Shown here piece after piece: positions 31,568-41,194 of a stretch of DNA of 52,136 nt (the stretch's first letter is position 1; every line of letters starts with the position of its first letter). The notes below the pieces were generated by a model, which saw only the letters and a program-made list of their open reading frames with translations, searched no databases and had not been told where the DNA came from. The stretch spans positions 1-52,136 of the forward strand of contig JAZGFI010000006.1 in NCBI GenBank assembly GCA_036479435.1, in the 5' to 3' direction. A program made the translations under genes and the position numbers. This DNA comes from Planctomycetota bacterium (GTDB taxonomy: Bacteria > Planctomycetota > GCA-002687715 > DRQF01).

Positions 31568-32056
31568 GTGGCCTCGCTTCAAATCCGTCCACTGACTCGC
31601 CTCGACAACCCTCAAATTGCCGAGGTGATCCGCGCCGTCATGCCGGAGTTTGGGGCGCAGGGACCAGGCTTTGCCATCCACGATCCCGAGGTCGATGCGA
31701 TGCATGCCGCCTATTCGTTAGTTCGCGCCGCGTATTTTGTGGTGGAAGAAGACAATCGCGTGGTGGGAGGTGCTGGTTACGCAGTCCTAGAGGGCGGTGA
31801 CCGGGATATTTGCGAGCTGCGGAAGATGTACTTTTTGCCCGAGCTTCGTGGCCGCGGAGTCGGTGCCGACATCCTGAAGTTTGTCTTGGCTCAAGCGGCC
31901 GCGGCGGGATTTCGCCGCTGCTACTTGGAGACCTTGACGGGCATGGATGCGGCCAAAACTCTCTATCGCCGTTTTGGGTTTGAAACCCTCGACGGCCCCT
32001 TGGGCTGCACCGGGCACTTTGGCTGCGACACCTGGATGATTCGGGATCTCGATTGA
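31568..32056 (+). CDS. GNAT family N-acetyltransferase (YjgM-like)
   Basis: CELRKMYFLPELRGRGVG, CYLET, A..LY..FGF, GCTGHFGCD; AGGAG RBS. Confidence 0.92.
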   Translation: MASLQIRPLTRLDNPQIAEVIRAVMPEFGAQGPGFAIHDPEVDAMHAAYSLVRAAYFVVEEDNRVVGGAGYAVLEGGDRDICELRKMYFLPELRGRGVGADILKFVLAQAAAAGFRRCYLETLTGMDAAKTLYRRFGFETLDGPLGCTGHFGCDTWMIRDLD

Positions 32057-32087
32057 GCCTCCACCAGTTTGTCACGTGACCAAAACA

Positions 32088-32140
32088 CTCAAGGCCTCCA
32101 ATCTACGCGACCTTGGGACGCGGAAAGAGGAGGCCTTGAG
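32088..32140. terminator. 12-bp perfect inverted repeat between convergent genes; probable 3'-end structure
   Basis: CTCAAGGCCTCC (32088-32099) / GGAGGCCTTGAG (32129-32140) with a nested CGCG/CGCG stem; no long U-tract. Confidence 0.6.
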
Positions 32141-32158
32141 ACTTACAGGCGAGCTGAG

Positions 32159-33175
32159 TTAGTTCAGTCCTCGCCCCCGGACTCGCGAAGAGGAACTGCC
32201 ATTCGACCGAGTGGCGCGGGACGCTTTTCGGTTGATCTTTGACCTTGCGTCTCCGAGGAAGTTGTTGGTGCGGATGACGCGCTTTTTTTTGACAACGCGA
32301 CGCGTTGCCCTTTTCTTGGGGCCTCAGCTAGGAGCCTTCCTTTTGACGCCGCGACGCGGCGCCTTCTTTTTGGGTCCTCAGCTTGCGGCGCGTTTTTTGA
32401 CGACGCGGCGGGCGGCGGCTTTTTTTGGTGACCGGGGGGAACTCAAGCTTCGGGCTGCGCTGGCTCGCCGATTGAAGGAAGGGCTCGACTTATCGATGAC
32501 CTTCGCTCCCGCTAGTGCCTTGAAGACGAAAGTCTCGTAGGGAGCCGTGCGGCTGGTGTCAAAAGACTTAAACACCGTCCGTCTCATGACGCGATCTCGG
32601 CGATCAAACTGCTCAATGCGCAGAGGGATCCCGGTTTGTTGATCAAAGGCCGACACCTGTCGGGTGTAGGCTGCGCGCGATCTTTTGTGCGGGGTCAGTT
32701 CCAGAACCCAGCAGGGTCGCCCCAAGACCTTGGCCTCGGGCAGAAGCTTGACCTCATCGTTGCGCAGACGCGCATTGAGGACAGGATTCTGCGGCGGCAT
32801 GCTCGGAGCCGCGTCTTTGGTTACCACGGTTCTGCCGGCAACATCACCCCAGGAGTAGATCATCTTGCCATCGCGAATCGAGGTGTGCTTAAGCGGCTTG
32901 GTGCTGCCGTCGGCGGTGGGCATCTGGCCTCGGGTCTCGATGCGCCATTTGATCAGCCGCCCGGATTGCTGCCAATCCTGCACGACCCGGCTTTTCTGCT
33001 CGCGCCTGAATTCAATTCCAGTGAAAACGCTGTTTTCTATTTCGGCGTGAAACGCCGAGGTTGCCTTGGCCCGCCTCGCGATCTTTTTACCGATCGACTC
33101 GGTTGTTTCTTGCCCCGTCGCGATACCGACAGACAAAAACAGGCCCAGGGCTCCCATTAAGGAAATCCGTTGCAT
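32159..33175 (-). CDS. Secreted LolA-like fold protein with a basic 18-aa repeat tail containing two in-frame UGAs (putative Sec266 and Sec284); 338 aa if read through, 265 aa if not
   Basis: Signal peptide; V.GRPCWVLELTP...D.QTGIPLR.E..D...F.F...GAKVID. The frame continues S*GPKKKAPRRGVKRKAPS*GPKKRATRRVVKKKR...LN to TAA 32159-32161. Confidence 0.75.
32291..32309 (-). promoter_or_regulatory. Putative bacterial SECIS hairpin 2 (GGCAACGC-GUC-GCGUUGUC)
   Basis: 8-bp stem starting 14 nt after UGA 32324-32326; loop begins GU. Confidence 0.7.
32345..32363 (-). promoter_or_regulatory. Putative bacterial SECIS hairpin 1 (GGCGCCGC-GUC-GCGGCGUC)
   Basis: 8-bp stem starting 14 nt after UGA 32378-32380; two compensatory pair changes relative to hairpin 2. 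Confidence 0.7.
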
Positions 33176-33300: not shown

Positions 33301-34143
33301 TTAGTCCTTTTCAATCGCAAGCAAAAAGGCATTCGCGAGCGGAAGGAAGACCGGCGACCCCAACCAGGGCCAACGCATGCCGTCGAACTTTGGCAGTAAC
33401 ACTTCAAGCCAGCGGAAGTACCGGGGGAACAGATACACTCCCCGAAGGCCAATGACACGCCCACACCCAGACCGCGCCACGCGAACGAATTCGGCCGGGC
33501 GGCGGCGGATAGCGTGTTTTTGAGGCCGCCACTGACCTTTGCGCCAAGCTTTTGAAACCGCCAGCAGGTGCCCCACGAGGCCGTGGGCCGAGTTGCGGTT
33601 TAGAGTGATGATGTAGGCGCGGCCACCCGGTTCCAACACTCTGAGCATCTCGCGCAAGGCAGTAGCTCCGTCTTCGATGTGCTGGAGGACACCGACATTG
33701 ATGAGGCCCTCAAAAACTTGGTCGGCAAATGGCAACTTGAGGACGTCGGCCTGCACCAAGGGCACCGCAACTGGCCCTTCGACCGCTTCCAGGACCGCGC
33801 GCGCGCGCCCTAACATGCCCTCGGAGAAATCTGCGCCGACGGGCCGCAGACCATCTTCACGCAGATGCAGGCAGTACACGCCCGAACCACATCCAAGATC
33901 CAAAATTCGGGATGCTTTTTTTAGCGGCCAACGCCGCAAGGCTCGTCCAATTTCTTCCAGGCGCCGTTCGAGGCCATGCTCGGACCAGCCCGAGATTTTG
34001 GCGGCGCTTCCGCCGCGGGCGGCGAATCGATCAAAGCGATCGCGCCAGGCGGACTCGAAAGACGCACTGGGGGCCGCTTTACCGGCGTCGGCGGGAGCGG
34101 AATGTGGGTTCTTATTCACGTCGACTGGACTCACTGGCCTCAC
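33301..34143 (-). CDS. Class I SAM-dependent methyltransferase
   Basis: ILDLGCGSG, GADFSEGML, ADVLKLPFAD, EMLRVLEPGG; start codon uncertain. Confidence 0.9.
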   Translation of the reverse strand: MRPVSPVDVNKNPHSAPADAGKAAPSASFESAWRDRFDRFAARGGSAAKISGWSEHGLERRLEEIGRALRRWPLKKASRILDLGCGSGVYCLHLREDGLRPVGADFSEGMLGRARAVLEAVEGPVAVPLVQADVLKLPFADQVFEGLINVGVLQHIEDGATALREMLRVLEPGGRAYIITLNRNSAHGLVGHLLAVSKAWRKGQWRPQKHAIRRRPAEFVRVARSGCGRVIGLRGVYLFPRYFRWLEVLLPKFDGMRWPWLGSPVFLPLANAFLLAIEKD

Positions 34144-34159
34144 ATCTTTCGTACCTAGA

Positions 34160-34176
34160 TGTCGATATATCCGACA
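34160..34176. promoter_or_regulatory. Palindromic regulator site TGTCG-ATATATC-CGACA
   Basis: Perfect 5-bp arms in a divergent intergenic region; 14/17 identical to the site at 38481. Confidence 0.6.
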
Positions 34177-34254
34177 GATTGTCTGCATTTGCAACGACAA
34201 CTAGATGAAAGATCATGGCAACTCGGTGCATCCAGCCGAAGAGCGAACCGGAAG

Positions 34255-35211
34255 ATGAGTGAAGAACTGGCCAAAGGTTGGGAAGAGTGGTCGAAGACGG
34301 TGGCAGGTGCCCTCGCTCTGGACCTATCGTCCACCTTGGGCTCGCCGGTGAGCGCCGAAGTTGAAAAAGCTGAGATGATCAGCGACGTCGATGTCCGTTC
34401 AAGTCTTCCCTCCGATACCACCGGCTGTTTCGCGAATCTGAAGGAAGGCGGCGCCATCGCCCTGCTCCTAGGAGGCCCCAACGCCCTTACGCTCGCCAAG
34501 GCTAAGAACGGTGGCGAGAGCGTGACCGTCGGAGACGATGAGAAGTCAGCGCTAGAAGAACTTGGCAAAGGCCTTGCCGGCGTCCTCCAAGAAGCTTCAA
34601 TGCCTTTGTGTTCAATCGCACCCATCTGGGAAGAGACCAGCGTCGCCTTTATGGCGGACTCAACCTGGGAGGGCGGCGAGGACCGAGTGCCTTCGGGGGA
34701 CCTTTTGCGAAGCGTCATGGTATTGACGCCACAGCAAGGCGAGACGATCACCATTGAGGTCATCTTGGCCCAGGATCTATGCGATGTGCCTTTCGATAAG
34801 ATGCCCGCCTACCGCGACTCTGCGGACGACGAAGTCGACCTCGATGCGCCGCGCCACATCTTGAGCTTCTGCTCTGATGCGAAGATTGCCGAACGCATTG
34901 CTGAATTTGTGAGTGAAGAGGACTCGCACAAGTCTGCCGAGTCAGTTTCGGACTTCTTGGAGCGCTTCGACGACGACGACATCAACGTCGGCATTATCGA
35001 AGTCAAAAGCGGGGATGAATTCTGGTTGCCCTTGCTCGGCGATCTCAAGGGTAGGCTTGATAAGCCGCTCATCGTCGTTCTGGAAGAACCTAAGACTTGG
35101 CGGGTGGTTCAATGCGGCAGGCTTGGACTTTTCGGCGTGCTGAGCCCCGAGTTCAGCGGGCGCGACTTTCAAGGACGCGTCCGCAGCGAACGGCTTCAGC
35201 CCGCGTCTTGA
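34255..35211 (+). CDS. CheC/FliM/FliY-like domain fused to a degenerate receiver-like domain
   Basis: LSSTLGSPV, DEKSALEELG helix motif and a C-terminal alpha/beta segment; located next to fliMN; ATG 34255. Confidence 0.55.
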   Translation: MSEELAKGWEEWSKTVAGALALDLSSTLGSPVSAEVEKAEMISDVDVRSSLPSDTTGCFANLKEGGAIALLLGGPNALTLAKAKNGGESVTVGDDEKSALEELGKGLAGVLQEASMPLCSIAPIWEETSVAFMADSTWEGGEDRVPSGDLLRSVMVLTPQQGETITIEVILAQDLCDVPFDKMPAYRDSADDEVDLDAPRHILSFCSDAKIAERIAEFVSEEDSHKSAESVSDFLERFDDDDINVGIIEVKSGDEFWLPLLGDLKGRLDKPLIVVLEEPKTWRVVQCGRLGLFGVLSPEFSGRDFQGRVRSERLQPAS

Positions 35212-35594
35212 ATGACTTCCGTGACGCGGAGCCCATAGTGGTCGTCAACAACGACGATTTCGCCCTTGGCAATCAGCTTGTCGCCGATCACGAGGTCAAT
35301 CGGCTCGCCCGCCGCGCGTTCCAGATCGATAACGGTGCCCGGCAGCAGATCTAACACTTCCGAGATGGTCTTCCGTACCATGCCGACTCTTGCGGTCACC
35401 GCTACACTAACGTCCATGACACGGCCGAGATTGTTGACTCCCGTCGCCGAGTTCGGAGCCGTGACCGAAGACACAAGCTCTTCAAGTTCCACCGGAGCCA
35501 CCGAGGCCGCCATCGTATTCGGATCTGAGACGTCCGGAATCGTGGCCTCTGCCACCGAGGCGCTTGGGTTTTCGTTGTTGTTTTCGTCGCTCAT
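35196..35594 (-). CDS. fliN: Flagellar motor switch protein FliN
   Basis: MDVSV.V...G...I.E.L.L.PGTVIDLERAAGEPIDL...AKGEIVVVDDHYGLRVTE. Confidence 0.93.
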   Translation of the reverse strand: MSDENNNENPSASVAEATIPDVSDPNTMAASVAPVELEELVSSVTAPNSATGVNNLGRVMDVSVAVTARVGMVRKTISEVLDLLPGTVIDLERAAGEPIDLVIGDKLIAKGEIVVVDDHYGLRVTEVIQDAG

Positions 35595-36589
35595 GCTTGG
35601 GCGCCTTTTGTGAATGGTTGTGAGCTAGTGGTGTTGGCGAGTTCCGTTATCGAAAAAGCCATGCTGCTTCCCTTGCGGCCCAGAGTGCCGCGGTATTTTT
35701 CGACGCCCTCAACCAAGAAAGTAAAGGCGTCACCTGGCTTGGTGTCGAGCACAATGACGTCTCCCTCTTCTAGCTCGGTAACTTCCGCCAAAGTCAGTTC
35801 ACGGGAGCCGACGTTGATACTCGTATCGACCTGAACGTCGGCAATCCTCGTTTCAAGCGCGTGGCGGCGACCGACAACGCTTTCTTCGCTTTGCACCGGA
35901 AGACTCGCGACCGCCTCAATGGCGGGCAAAAGCTCCGCGAAGGGTAGCGCTAGAACGAAATCCCACTGGGTGTCTTCATCGAGGCTTGCGCTGTAGCGCG
36001 CCACGATGCAGCTTTCGGCTTCGGCGAAGGGACGAATCTCGTCTACGGAGTCAAAACTCCCGGTCCAGGCAATCGTAAGCGGCGTGATCGTCGAAAGGGA
36101 CTGTTGGTGCACCTGTAGAAAAGGCGACATGACGTTCGAGAGAACACGTTGTTCGATAGTCGTGAGATTGCGGCCCAGGGCCGTCTGTCGGCCCAATCCC
36201 CCCAGCAGAAGGTCAATGATCGAAGTGACCGTCAGCTCCGGCGTGATCAAGTAGGCCGGTTGGCCGAGTTCGTTGACGTCGAGCCGAAAAAGACAAGATG
36301 CTCCCGGCGTCTTTTCGATGAAGGGTCCGAAGCGTTGTTGGTCCAGGCTTTCGAGCTTGAACTCAATACGGTGGCGCAACACAGCACTGAACTCGGACGC
36401 CGACCGGGCCGCGATGGCCTCAAACCTGAGCCGCATCGCCGCGAGCAAATCCGGGCGCAAAAGATTCGGGTTTTCAGCTCCCCAATCCGAGGTGCGGTTA
36501 CGCAACTCTCGCTGCACCATCTTCCGCGAGCGGAAACGGCCAAGGAGGGCGTCGATACCTTGAATATCGAGAACGTCGTCTTGAGTCAT
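35591..36589 (-). CDS. fliM: Flagellar motor switch protein FliM
   Basis: N-terminal VL....IDALL CheY-binding-like peptide, IDLLLGG.G, R.LT.IE and a C-terminal SpoA domain; ATGA-coupled to fliN. Confidence 0.88.
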   Translation of the reverse strand: MTQDDVLDIQGIDALLGRFRSRKMVQRELRNRTSDWGAENPNLLRPDLLAAMRLRFEAIAARSASEFSAVLRHRIEFKLESLDQQRFGPFIEKTPGASCLFRLDVNELGQPAYLITPELTVTSIIDLLLGGLGRQTALGRNLTTIEQRVLSNVMSPFLQVHQQSLSTITPLTIAWTGSFDSVDEIRPFAEAESCIVARYSASLDEDTQWDFVLALPFAELLPAIEAVASLPVQSEESVVGRRHALETRIADVQVDTSINVGSRELTLAEVTELEEGDVIVLDTKPGDAFTFLVEGVEKYRGTLGRKGSSMAFSITELANTTSSQPFTKGAQA

Positions 36590-40423: not shown

Positions 40424-41194
40424 GTGGATCAAGAAACCCTCGAAGTTTTCGTGCGCTTTCACTTTCTGCATTGGGCGCGATGCGTGGCCATGCTGGGCCC
40501 GATCCCCATTTTCGGCGAAGGCGTGGGAGCTCGCGTTGGCAAGCTCGGCCTCGGCATCATGCTGGGCTCCATCTTCGCCTTGAATTCAGGCATGGGCGAG
40601 TTCGCCGATCCCGGTTTTGGCATGCGCCTTTTTCTTTGCCTCGCAAACGAGGCCTTGCTCGGGATTCTGTTTGGCTTCGTAGCGAACATTGCGTTCTCAG
40701 CGATTCGCATCGCCGGCCACCTCATTGGTACCGAAATGGGCTTCAGTATGGCGAGCATTCAAGACCCTATTACCGGAGTCAACGTCCAGGTCGTCGCGCA
40801 CATCATCGAGTCCTTTAGCTTTTTGTTGTTCTTCGCCGTAGGAGGGCATCACACCCTTCTCCGCGCGCTCTACCAATCATTTGATCGCTACCGCGTTGGC
40901 GAGCTTGGGCTCAGTCGTGAGCTGATTGAAGCCGTGGTGATCTACAGCTCCGGCATCTTCGCCGCGGCCTTTCAGCTCGCGGCCCCGATCTTCGTCGCCA
41001 TGATTCTGACCGGAGTGTCCTTGGCGATCCTCGCCAAGTTAGCGCCTCAGTTGCAAATCATGCAGTTCGCATTCAGTTTCAAGATCTTAGCCGGGATCAT
41101 GTTGATCTTGGCCACTCTGCCCACCTTGGTCGCCTCGATGCACTTCATCTTTGACCGCGGCGATCAGTTCTTCCTCGAAATCACGAGTCCCTGA
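40424..41194 (+). CDS. fliR: Flagellar export gate protein FliR
   Basis: E.LLG..FG, AG..I...MGF, DP..G, GGHH, APQLQI. Confidence 0.93.
   Translation: MDQETLEVFVRFHFLHWARCVAMLGPIPIFGEGVGARVGKLGLGIMLGSIFALNSGMGEFADPGFGMRLFLCLANEALLGILFGFVANIAFSAIRIAGHLIGTEMGFSMASIQDPITGVNVQVVAHIIESFSFLLFFAVGGHHTLLRALYQSFDRYRVGELGLSRELIEAVVIYSSGIFAAAFQLAAPIFVAMILTGVSLAILAKLAPQLQIMQFAFSFKILAGIMLILATLPTLVASMHFIFDRGDQFFLEITSP

Follow-up and report, generated by a model that had tools for sequence, protein, structure and literature searches.

The locus studied here raises the question of whether two in-frame UGA codons near the 3' end of a LolA-like gene, each followed by a hairpin, are read as selenocysteine (Sec) or as stops. 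The gene lies on contig JAZGFI010000006.1 of a Planctomycetota bacterium, in a window (the whole stretch of DNA that was analyzed) of 52,136 nt. A preliminary description of this DNA had proposed a Sec codon with its own SECIS element, multiplied by tandem duplication in the basic tail of an exported protein. In this analysis, the first UGA was tentatively assigned as a plain stop codon in a truncated tail. This was regarded as somewhat more likely than a new type of selenoprotein, because the relatives of the gene gave the latter no support.

Gene Organization and Protein Fold

The gene, its product, and the convergent gene were located in the window as follows.
33175..32378, minus strand: LolA-fold gene with a predicted exported product; ORF from ATG 33175 to TGA 32380–32378, 265 aa
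32378..33175, minus strand: layout of the LolA-fold protein, with a signal-peptide-like N-terminus, a LolA-like domain to about residue 231, and then a basic tail
31568..32056, plus strand: convergent GNAT acetyltransferase gene (Pfam Acetyltransf_1, 58.6 bits)

The second in-frame TGA of the gene was found 54 nt past the first, at 32326–32324 on the minus strand. With TGA read as a sense codon, the frame reached the TAA at 32161–32159, giving a protein of 338 aa. The LolA-fold protein scored 47.6 bits with Pfam PF17131 (LolA_like), for which the cut-off is 30, and 28 bits with MucB_RseB (PF03888). Its AlphaFold model had a pLDDT of 86.7 and a pTM of 0.77, and the top Foldseek matches of the model were LolA, LolA3, RseB, and MucB, with a probability of 1.0. 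The half-barrel fold, together with the domain match above the cut-off, placed the protein in the LolA-like superfamily, in agreement with the fold named in the preliminary description. The domain and the fold were common to the LolA, LolB, RseB, and MucB half-barrel proteins, and the N-terminus was signal-peptide-like. Unlike these named proteins, the LolA-fold protein belonged to a subfamily without a name, in which about three in ten members carried a tail rich in Lys, Glu, Pro, and Ala. Many of these tails finished in a short basic-hydrophobic end. No second LolA-like copy was found in the genome.

Repeats, Stop Codons, and Hairpins

A tandem repeat with a period of 54, 2.7 copies, and 75% matches was reported at 32285–32428 by Tandem Repeats Finder. 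The region of the tail contained the following features.
32381..32434, minus strand: repeat unit 1, certainly translated; first codon CGG (Arg); without hairpin
32327..32380, minus strand: repeat unit 2; first codon TGA 32380–32378
32273..32326, minus strand: repeat unit 3; first codon TGA 32326–32324; last three to four codons diverging from the repeat
32345..32363, minus strand: hairpin 1; 8-bp stem with one G-U pair, GUC loop at 32355–32353, 14 nt past the first TGA
32291..32309, minus strand: hairpin 2; 8-bp stem, GUC loop at 32301–32299, 14 nt past the second TGA
32159..32272, minus strand: candidate coding frame of 37 codons behind the repeats, ending in TAA 32161–32159
32081..32140, minus strand: 12-bp inverted repeat, arms 32140–32129 and 32099–32088, separated by 29 nt with additional folding; probable terminator for the minus-strand transcript

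The repeat units translated as the preliminary description had written them, and both TGAs were present in the context AGC-TGA-GGN-CCC. The 54-nt unit was unique in the genome, where no dispersed copies were found. Hairpins 1 and 2 differed at exactly four stem positions, where one G-C pair and one C-G pair were each replaced by A-U in a compensated manner, and no stem change was uncompensated. The G-U pair common to both hairpins paired only on the mRNA strand. In repeat unit 1, three C-C mismatches occurred at the stem positions, and the isolated fold had only −4.3 kcal/mol. The earlier account of the compensated stems, the shared G-U pair, and the hairpin-less unit with CGG was therefore accurate. 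In isolation, hairpin 1 had −15.0 kcal/mol, and both the MFE and the centroid fold of a 331-nt context contained it. Hairpin 2 had −11.0 kcal/mol in isolation; in the longer context, other pairings competed with it and the MFE lacked it. Furthermore, across the first 14 codons of repeats 2 and 3, the six differences outside the stem were all synonymous or K/R swaps.

The TAA was located 18 nt from the 12-bp inverted repeat, as had been noted. The inverted repeat was followed by UGUUUUG in the direction of the LolA-fold gene, and both the MFE and the centroid fold contained it as a long stem-loop. It was missing from the terminator scan, which admitted loops of 3–8 nt only.

Selenocysteine Machinery and Verified SECIS Elements

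The preliminary description had made its proposal dependent on the genes for Sec insertion, and the full set was found in the genome: selB (323 bits), selA (526 bits), selD (372 bits), and tRNA-Sec (67 bits), all above the curated cut-offs. The selD gene carried one in-frame TGA of its own, and the genome contained dozens of selenoprotein genes. Twelve Pfam-verified selenoprotein genes and selD were taken as a verified set of 13 SECIS elements. In all 13 genes, Sec was within a redox or metal-binding domain that spanned the UGA.

The bSECIS model, as far as it is set out in the part of the source used here (PMC13188914), has a loop of 3–9 nt, a stem of 4–16 bp, a G within the first two nucleotides of the loop, and a UGA-loop distance of 16–37 nt. 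Both candidate hairpins agreed with every one of these constraints: the GUC loop has 3 nt, the stem has 8 bp, and the loop lies 22 nt from the UGA. Compared with the 13 verified elements, their spacing, stem length, and GU-bearing loop were within the range, and their stabilities were −15.0 and −11.0 kcal/mol versus −6.7 to −13.1 kcal/mol. The bSECIS-like character claimed for the hairpins was thus upheld. The same descriptor at a stem of at least 7 bp fitted 12 of the 13 verified elements.

These results favor an explanation in which SelB, acting at the hairpin 14 nt past each UGA, recodes both codons and yields a product of 338 aa whose basic, disordered tail contains two Sec residues. The machinery was complete in a genome rich in selenoproteins, and the spacing and stability were like those of the verified elements. 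Other ribosomes would stop and release the 265-aa form, and the ratio of the long to the short form could track the selenium supply. Such recoding was judged possible and, on the whole, rather unlikely. The loop context C-GUC-G was absent from the 13 verified elements, whose loops were GGUC(U), CGUG(A/U), GGU, or GUU, and hairpin 2 would have to form against the competing pairings in its context. Moreover, none of the 13 verified genes had Sec outside a redox or metal site, nor did such Sec appear among the 119 families counted by a review, as far as the part of that review used here goes.

Outside the features included in the explicit descriptor, the verified elements shared little. Among 1820 TGA-ending genes with no other sign of Sec, the descriptor also gave about 18 matches. 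The Rfam models SECIS_2 to SECIS_5 gave no match in 32050–32500 up to E = 10, but only one of the 13 verified loci was matched by them, namely FdhA (SECIS_3, 47.4 bits, below gathering). In addition, the base after the UGA was too weak a signal to be used, with G in 41–46% of Sec sites versus 30% of stops.

Chance Tests and Possible Translation past the First UGA

When the same codons were shuffled, such a hairpin was obtained in 0.18% and 0.09% of the trials for the two sites, and an 8-bp stem in 0.03% and 0.01%. Across the genome, 1.2% of randomly chosen positions had the hairpin, and 0.5% had one of 8 bp. With 0.01–0.18% of the codon shuffles giving the hairpins, a chance origin was ruled out. 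Recoding by SelB is favored by this non-randomness given the codons, by the two compensated pairs, and by the G-U pair that forms only on the mRNA strand. It is also favored by the retention of TGA in both units while the adjacent codons varied synonymously. An ordinary truncation, unlike this locus, predicts no non-random, compensated hairpin at SECIS distance from each stop, and the assignment of the first UGA as a plain stop leaves the strong non-randomness of the hairpins without explanation.

The signals of translation past the UGA were not significant, which weighs against recoding. The frame was open to the TAA just before the terminator-like inverted repeat, as recoding would have it. 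However, 862 of the 1792 TGA-ending genes (48%) stayed open for at least 72 codons to the next TAA or TAG, and two of the three minus-strand frames were open behind the repeats; therefore, the open frame was uninformative. Between repeats 2 and 3, six of the ten differences were at third positions (p = 0.077), as were four of the six outside the stem (p = 0.10). Neither value was significant, and the earlier argument that the synonymous differences pointed to translated sequence fell short accordingly. Between repeats 1 and 3, nine of the fifteen differences were at third positions (p = 0.031), and the changes that made the stem were mostly third-position changes. This excess was as expected for a hairpin arising in translated sequence. 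The codon score was −0.065 per codon past the UGA, −0.112 for codons 232–265, which are certainly translated, and −0.139 for the 37-codon frame, while the downstream scores of the 13 verified selenoprotein genes were all at least +0.169. The low score was no argument against translation, because the tail that is certainly translated also scored low. A likeness between the parts of the tail on either side of the repeats, in the form of an N-R-R/K-A-S...R-S stretch, was not significant when compared with shuffles (p = 0.09), had no counterpart in the DNA sequence, and was dropped.

Possible Assembly Errors and Other Modes of Read-Through

UGA is the leakiest stop codon in bacteria, and the two TGAs might be passed by a near-cognate tRNA or under a different genetic code, with no role for Sec, or they might be errors of the assembly. 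These possibilities were considered highly improbable. Contigs from the public runs of two studies were identical (X3 over the whole stretch, X6 over 31975–32413), and the assembly artifact was rejected on the identity of both TGAs in them. Four public runs, all represented by contigs, were compared for strain variation at 80% likeness, and 0 differences were found. No RNA run was listed for the locus. TGA was the commonest stop of the long ORFs (800/1792), which indicates that the genome does not reassign it.

Possible Plus-Strand Terminators

The preliminary description had itself named termination on the plus strand as an alternative that would speak against Sec. The UGAs would then be plain stops, and the hairpins would be kept as plus-strand terminators that end the convergent GNAT transcripts ahead of the LolA-like coding region. 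Three terminator-like sites were found on the plus strand (32267–32283, 32293–32307, and 32347–32361), and seven sites were found in 2 kb versus 3.0 ± 1.7 in shuffles; a second scan reproduced the three sites. These three border the 265-aa coding region on its 3' side, a position that would suit the blocking of antisense transcription, and compensated pairs fit any selected stem. The sites resembled Rho-independent terminators in the GC-rich stem, the 3-nt loop, and the T-run.

The differences from Rho-independent terminators were in the place of the sites, a mismatch, and the origin of the T-runs. Genome-wide, a hairpin with a T-run was enriched only within 50 nt past stops (3.0% versus about 1%), whereas the present sites were 211–291 nt beyond the end of the GNAT gene at 32056. 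On the plus strand, A and C face each other in place of the G-U pair, so that the stem has only 6 bp and is separated from the T-run by 2 nt. The plus-strand T-runs arose from Lys codons, and they were present in the hairpin-less unit 1 as well. In addition, termination gives no account of the GU loop or of the fixed distance to the TGA. As an objection to Sec, plus-strand termination thus proved weak, its sites being beyond the 50-nt zone of enrichment, and this explanation was regarded as improbable. Canonical terminators were rare here and absent at such a distance from stops, and the lack of a supported alternative role for the hairpins counts against the assignment of the first UGA as a plain stop.

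Relatives and Conservation of the Tail

The search for relatives covered 1.84 billion representatives and gave no close relative above 29% identity; none of the 150 relatives listed exceeded 29% identity to the LolA-fold protein. Among clusters (5.8 billion searched), only the LolA-fold gene itself was found, and the scans of metagenome and genome contigs gave no relative confirmed by tblastn. A tail of at least 30 aa was present in 44 of the 150 listed family members. Neither Cys nor UGA was found in any of the 58 other homolog tails of at least 20 aa, which could not be aligned residue by residue. In a profile search of 401 genomes of the phylum, 31 other family genes with DNA were obtained; none of them, the 11 that ended in TGA among them, had a TGA followed by a SECIS-like hairpin. 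The tails of the long-tailed family genes L023 and L026 were uninterrupted. The alternation of Cys and UGA for which the preliminary description had looked to relatives was therefore not seen in the 58 tails and 31 genes.

The nearest relative was found in G003, the only genome of the same family with this gene. This genome is Sec-capable (selB 362 bits); even so, its tail was uninterrupted and contained neither Cys nor UGA. Recoding is opposed by this tail, as well as by the lack of a Cys homolog and of a second case in the family. Arg at the TGA columns had also been named earlier as evidence against Sec. This was borne out in part: the only alignable sequence, repeat unit 1, had Arg there (CGG), which likewise opposes recoding. 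On the other side, long tails occurred in the family, and the end of the read-through tail resembled that of the nearest relative by eye only, a likeness that was given little weight.

Proposed Truncation of the Tail

A plain stop at the first UGA would be reached as follows. Translation would end at UGA 32380–32378, giving an exported LolA-fold protein of 265 aa with a basic tail of 34 residues. What follows, two more 54-nt units and then 37 codons, would be the remnant of a longer disordered tail. We infer that an Arg codon heading a repeat unit changed from CGA to TGA by a C-to-T substitution, which cut the tail, with unit 1 retaining CGG, and that the stop-bearing unit was then copied once in register. 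A single in-register copy of a 54-nt unit would keep the frame automatically. The transcript would continue to the inverted-repeat terminator past the old TAA, and the hairpins would be real structures of the 3' untranslated region, which satisfy the loose bSECIS rules without useful Sec insertion and are probably unused by SelB.

As in ordinary nonsense-truncated tails, TGA here was one transition from the Arg codon CGA. The loss of the tail was plausibly tolerated, because 106 of the 150 family members had no tail of at least 30 aa. Selection to keep the tail would need no SECIS element, since a single-base change would turn TGA back into a sense codon in eight of the nine possible cases.

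Comparison with Known Systems

The locus resembled bacterial selenoprotein genes with bSECIS elements in its arrangement: a UGA was followed by a short stem-loop with G or GU starting a small apical loop, and there was one hairpin per UGA. It differed from them in that the UGA was outside a redox or metal motif and outside any conserved domain, no Cys homolog was found, and the paralogous unit had Arg. One hairpin per UGA was also found in other multi-UGA genes of the genome. For instance, an HMA-type gene on contig C124 of the same genome, two of whose UGA sites were covered in this analysis, had repeated units, each with a UGA and a hairpin, like the tail of the LolA-fold gene. These repeats arose most simply by tandem duplication. 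Its unit was a folded domain with the UGA at the place of the HMA metal-binding Cys, whereas the unit of the LolA-fold gene encoded 18 basic, disordered residues. Other HMA genes of the genome had the pattern GMxU. Thus, the duplication of a unit of Sec codon and SECIS element, presented in the preliminary description as a new kind, was in principle already present in this genome, and the part that would be new is the non-redox, disordered context.

To our knowledge, selenoprotein P is the only well-known case in which Sec is not simply catalytic. In vertebrates, it has several Sec codons per mRNA and serves in selenium transport, as stated in the parts of the sources used here (PMC5727441, PMC8230778). 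Unlike the LolA-fold gene, the gene of selenoprotein P is eukaryotic, with SECIS elements in the 3' UTR that serve all UGAs. The two proteins had no relation in sequence or fold, and the likeness was one of idea only.

If Sec were inserted at this locus, it would be a bacterial selenoprotein with Sec outside a redox or metal-site fold and without relatives in a Cys form, originating by tandem copying of an 18-residue unit with its SECIS. Sec would then, for the first time in bacteria, have a role that is neither catalytic nor at a metal site. Possible roles would be, for instance, a selenium-dependent choice between two protein forms, or the handling of selenium or metals in the periplasm. The roles put forward in the preliminary description, namely selenium storage, metal capture, and diselenide links, are speculative. 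The discovery of bacterial selenoproteins depends either on homologs with Cys or on conservation of the coding sequence past the UGA, and is therefore blind to Sec in fast-evolving, low-complexity regions. If the tail is made, such blind spots do contain selenoproteins. If it is not made, the locus is a warning that a plain stop can precede a hairpin that agrees with all bSECIS rules, is compensated, and looks native.

Another in-frame TGA of the window, at 41192–41194, was set aside as a candidate: it separated two adjacent genes in the same frame, with Met directly after the TGA.

The LolA-Like Gene and Its Repeated Tail

The LolA-like gene and the surrounding features occupied the following positions of the window.

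33175 to 32378, minus strand: LolA-like open reading frame, from ATG 33175 to TGA 32380-32378, 265 aa
Upstream of the LolA-like gene: methyltransferase gene
Neighbour of the LolA-like gene: gene of a bPH_2 protein
32345-32363, minus strand: hairpin 1, 8-bp stem and GUC loop, 14 nt behind the first TGA
32291-32309, minus strand: hairpin 2, 8-bp stem and GUC loop, 14 nt behind the second TGA (32326-32324)
32081-32140: 12-bp inverted repeat, beginning 18 nt past the TAA and 31 nt past the GNAT stop
End at 32056, plus strand: neighbouring GNAT gene, convergent with the LolA-like gene

The product matched the LolA_like domain of Pfam (PF17131) with 47.6 bits (cut-off 30), and MucB_RseB was a second, weaker match. 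The structure modelled from 51 family sequences was confident (pLDDT 86.7, pTM 0.77), and its closest structures in Foldseek were LolA3, LolA, RseB, and MucB, with a probability of 1.0. The N-terminus resembles a signal peptide, and a basic tail starts after about residue 231. According to Tandem Repeats Finder, the tail repeat has a period of 54 nt, 2.7 copies, and 75% matches. The first codon in frame was CGG in unit 1 and TGA in units 2 and 3, and the frame read through the TGAs ended at TAA 32161-32159, giving 338 aa. The two hairpins differed at four stem positions, which made up two compensated pairs, and had one G-U pair in common; the same positions of unit 1 held three C-C mismatches. 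The inverted repeat formed a long stem-loop in a 331-nt fold, and the whole region was much more stably folded than its shuffles (z = −4.6). Its 29-nt spacer folds itself, and a U-run stands behind the repeat in the minus direction only. Because of this U-run and the distances to the TAA and the GNAT stop, the inverted repeat likely terminates the LolA-like transcript, no matter at which stop translation ends. On re-examination, the preliminary description of repeats, TGAs, hairpins, compensated pairs, and inverted repeat was correct throughout.

A 109-codon open frame at 32211-32540 (plus strand) overlapped the repeats and the last part of the LolA-like domain in antisense orientation. Since its codon score was about zero and no Pfam family matched, it is probably no gene.

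Accuracy and Occurrence of the Sequence

Both TGAs and the surrounding stretch were identical, with 0 differences, in contigs of public sequencing runs from two studies; those of run X3 covered all of the stretch and those of run X6 covered 32413 down to 31975. Assembly error as the source of the TGAs was thus ruled out. No strain variation was found at the locus among the public-run contigs compared, and none of the runs listed for the locus was an RNA run. Among runs X1-X8, the identical locus occurred in invertebrate-associated metagenomes and in runs of 2025 labelled with a single organism, and a part of it occurred in a seawater metagenome. Accordingly, the bacterium seems to live in association with a marine host and to show little variation among these samples.

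Selenocysteine Capacity of the Genome

The genome can insert selenocysteine (Sec). The preliminary description had proposed Sec at both UGAs and named the Sec machinery as its first check; selA, selB, selD, and tRNA-Sec were all found with scores above the curated cut-offs, and selD itself contained an in-frame TGA. The genes selA and selD and the tRNA-Sec gene adjoined on one strand of contig C117 (about 33648-36236), and selB lay apart on contig C237. Furthermore, selB was present in 5/5 same-family genomes tested.

A scan for coding signal on both sides of a TGA and a downstream SECIS-like hairpin gave 116 in-frame TGA sites, many of them within recognisable redox or metal-binding motifs. 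When 20 of these sites were run through Pfam with the TGA read as Cys, a domain match spanned the UGA in 15 and exceeded the Pfam cut-off in 12, namely AhpC-TSA/Redoxin (5), CMD (2), DUF3179 (2), HMA (2), and Molybdopterin (FdhA, 1). These 12 sites and that of selD were taken as the verified set of 13. The selenoproteome of this genome is very large. Examples of the TGA sites, by contig, are C263:3983, C131, C185:14439, C62:1647, C201:8912, C96, C262:46936, C163, C69, C141, and C109:1396. At least seven thioredoxin-like paralogs possessed a W-U-G/P-P-C motif, and the GGUC loop started 34 nt behind the UGA in all of them. In addition, two proteins (on contigs C295, locus L055, and C220) had a motif of the W-U-C-x-x-x-C type shortly before their FG-GAP repeats. 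In Pfam, the FG-GAP match started 9-10 residues behind the UGA and did not span it; these proteins may be a selenoprotein family outside the domains tested.

The in-frame TGA at window 41192-41194 (plus strand), flanked on either side by strong coding signal, proved to be the boundary of two adjacent same-frame genes with Met directly behind the TGA. Their products may be membrane components of an export apparatus of the flagellar type. Such adjacent genes are the commonest false positive of read-through scans.

Comparison of the Hairpins with SECIS Elements

The bacterial SECIS (bSECIS) model given in PMC13188914 has an apical loop of 3-9 nt, an upper stem of 4-16 bp, a UGA-to-loop distance of 16-37 nt, and a G within the first two nucleotides of the loop. 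Both hairpins agreed with all four points (3 nt, 8 bp, 22 nt, and GU, respectively). A descriptor with a perfect stem of at least 7 bp, and a loop of 3-6 nt that has GU at its positions 1-2 or 2-3 and begins 18-40 nt from the U of UGA fitted 12 of the 13 verified elements, and all 13 with a stem of 6 bp. The fit at random genome positions was 1.2% (8 bp: 0.5%), and codon shuffles behind each TGA gave 0.18% and 0.09% (8 bp: 0.03% and 0.01%). Therefore, the hairpins are a real feature and no side effect of the Ala, Arg, Pro, and Gly codons. The descriptor also fitted 23 of 1820 TGA-ending genes, with the LolA-like gene among them. At least four of the 23 look like selenoprotein genes themselves (two Pfam-verified, one with a below-cut-off domain match spanning the UGA, and one WUGPC paralog), and a basic tail behind the stop was found in none of the 18 remaining genes.

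The isolated stability was −15.0 kcal/mol for hairpin 1 and −11.0 kcal/mol for hairpin 2, and −6.7 to −13.1 kcal/mol for the verified elements. Hairpin 2 had competing pairings in longer folding contexts. The loop context C-GUC-G was absent from the 13 verified elements, which had GGUC(U), CGUG(A/U), GGU, or GUU. The Rfam SECIS models gave no match at the locus, but they recognised only 1 of 13 positive controls. The compensated change between the hairpins was one dinucleotide on each arm, so a small number of events, or templated mutation inside a near-palindrome, could account for the compensated pairs.

The hairpins might act as terminators on the plus strand, where both stems and a third weak one (32267-32283) each have a T-run and score as terminator-like. 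However, the T-runs are the complement of Lys codons and are present also in the stem-less unit 1, and the G-U pair turns into a mismatch on this strand. Moreover, terminator-like sites were enriched genome-wide only up to 50 nt past stops (3.0% against about 1%), and the sites here lie 211-291 nt past the GNAT stop. We consider plus-strand termination improbable.

Translation behind the TGA

Neither the open frame, nor the codon usage, nor the pattern of differences was decisive for translation behind the TGA. Read-through gave at least 72 codons to the next TAA or TAG in 862 of 1792 TGA-ending genes, and two of the three minus-strand frames were open behind the repeats. The codon score per codon was −0.065 in the post-UGA part and at least +0.169 downstream of the UGA in 13/13 verified sites. 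The certainly translated tail (codons 232-265) itself scored −0.112, and thus codon usage does not work as a measure for a basic tail of this kind. Only the comparison of units 2 and 3 informs on the period since the TGA arose. In their first 14 codons, 10 of 42 positions differed, and six of these differences fell on the third base of a codon (p = 0.077); for differences not in the stem, the count was 4 of 6 (p = 0.10). Between units 1 and 3, third positions made up 9 of 15 differences (p = 0.031). This underpowered pattern would fit translation and is suggestive. The stretches of tail on either side of the repeats were not significantly alike (p = 0.09).

Relatives and Origin of the TGA

The best of 295 HMMER matches in 1.84 billion representatives was 29% identical to the LolA-like protein, and word-based and pattern-based searches for close relatives found only the gene itself. 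A profile search found the family in 53 of 401 genomes of the phylum. At least 30 residues stood behind the domain in 44 of 150 listed homologs; homolog tails were typically rich in Lys, Glu, Pro, and Ala, and many had a short basic-hydrophobic motif at the end. The alternation of Cys and UGA that the preliminary description proposed to look for in relatives did not appear: Cys occurred in none of 58 other homolog tails of at least 20 aa, and the tail of about 70 residues in the nearest relative, which is Sec-capable and the only same-family genome with the gene, had neither UGA nor Cys. Its last residues resembled the end of the read-through frame by eye, which carries little weight. A SECIS-like hairpin behind the stop was found in none of 31 other family genes with DNA, 11 of them TGA-ending, and the long tails at loci L023 and L026 were uninterrupted. 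Because the aligned codon of unit 1 encodes Arg (CGG), the simplest origin of the TGAs would be a nonsense change from CGA rather than a change from Cys to Sec.

A plain stop in a truncated tail, with hairpins that do not serve Sec, has somewhat less than an even chance, and its main weakness is that the hairpins are left unexplained. Real Sec insertion at both UGAs is possible but rather unlikely, and across reasonable priors the estimate extends from quite unlikely to just short of even. In its favour, each UGA is followed at a suitable distance by a hairpin that is non-random, compensated, and of the SECIS type of this organism; both UGAs are conserved between units, and the selenoproteins of the genome are unusually many and varied. 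However, the standard selenoprotein tests gave no Cys homolog and no domain at the UGA, and no relative close enough to compare the flanks was found; the paralogous codon of unit 1 is Arg, the nearest relative manages without Sec or Cys in its tail, and each of the 13 verified Sec sites belongs to the redox or metal-site type. Nearly any single change of a TGA could, moreover, restore a tail worth keeping. The two-Sec interpretation is supported in part. How much the hairpins weigh depends mostly on the prior for Sec in a disordered, non-redox tail. Other or unknown readings take the rest.

If Sec is inserted, the mechanism would be the usual bacterial one of UGA and bSECIS, in which every UGA has a hairpin of its own; other multi-UGA genes of this genome are built likewise. 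The novelty would lie in where Sec stands, namely in a repeated unit of 18 residues within the disordered, basic tail of a LolA-fold protein that lacks Cys-form relatives. PMC13188914 puts the number of prokaryotic selenoprotein families at 119, nearly all with Cys homologs and a small subset with 2-3 Sec. Among the papers listed by a literature search, none linked LolA-type proteins with bacterial Sec; the one paper that matched on all terms dealt with the lola gene of Drosophila. The abstracts found on multi-Sec bacterial proteins and Planctomycetes selenoproteomes described nothing alike, and PMC13188914 may list further families. The locus is worth a direct experiment, since the test is simple and informative whichever way it falls.

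About 3 in 10 members of the LolA-like subfamily (homologs P0003-P0151) had tails of 30-80 residues. Many of these ended in a K-G-L-(L/F)-x-K-L-K-like or L-P-K-L-P-K-like motif, which might perhaps serve as a membrane contact or as a plug for the half-barrel.
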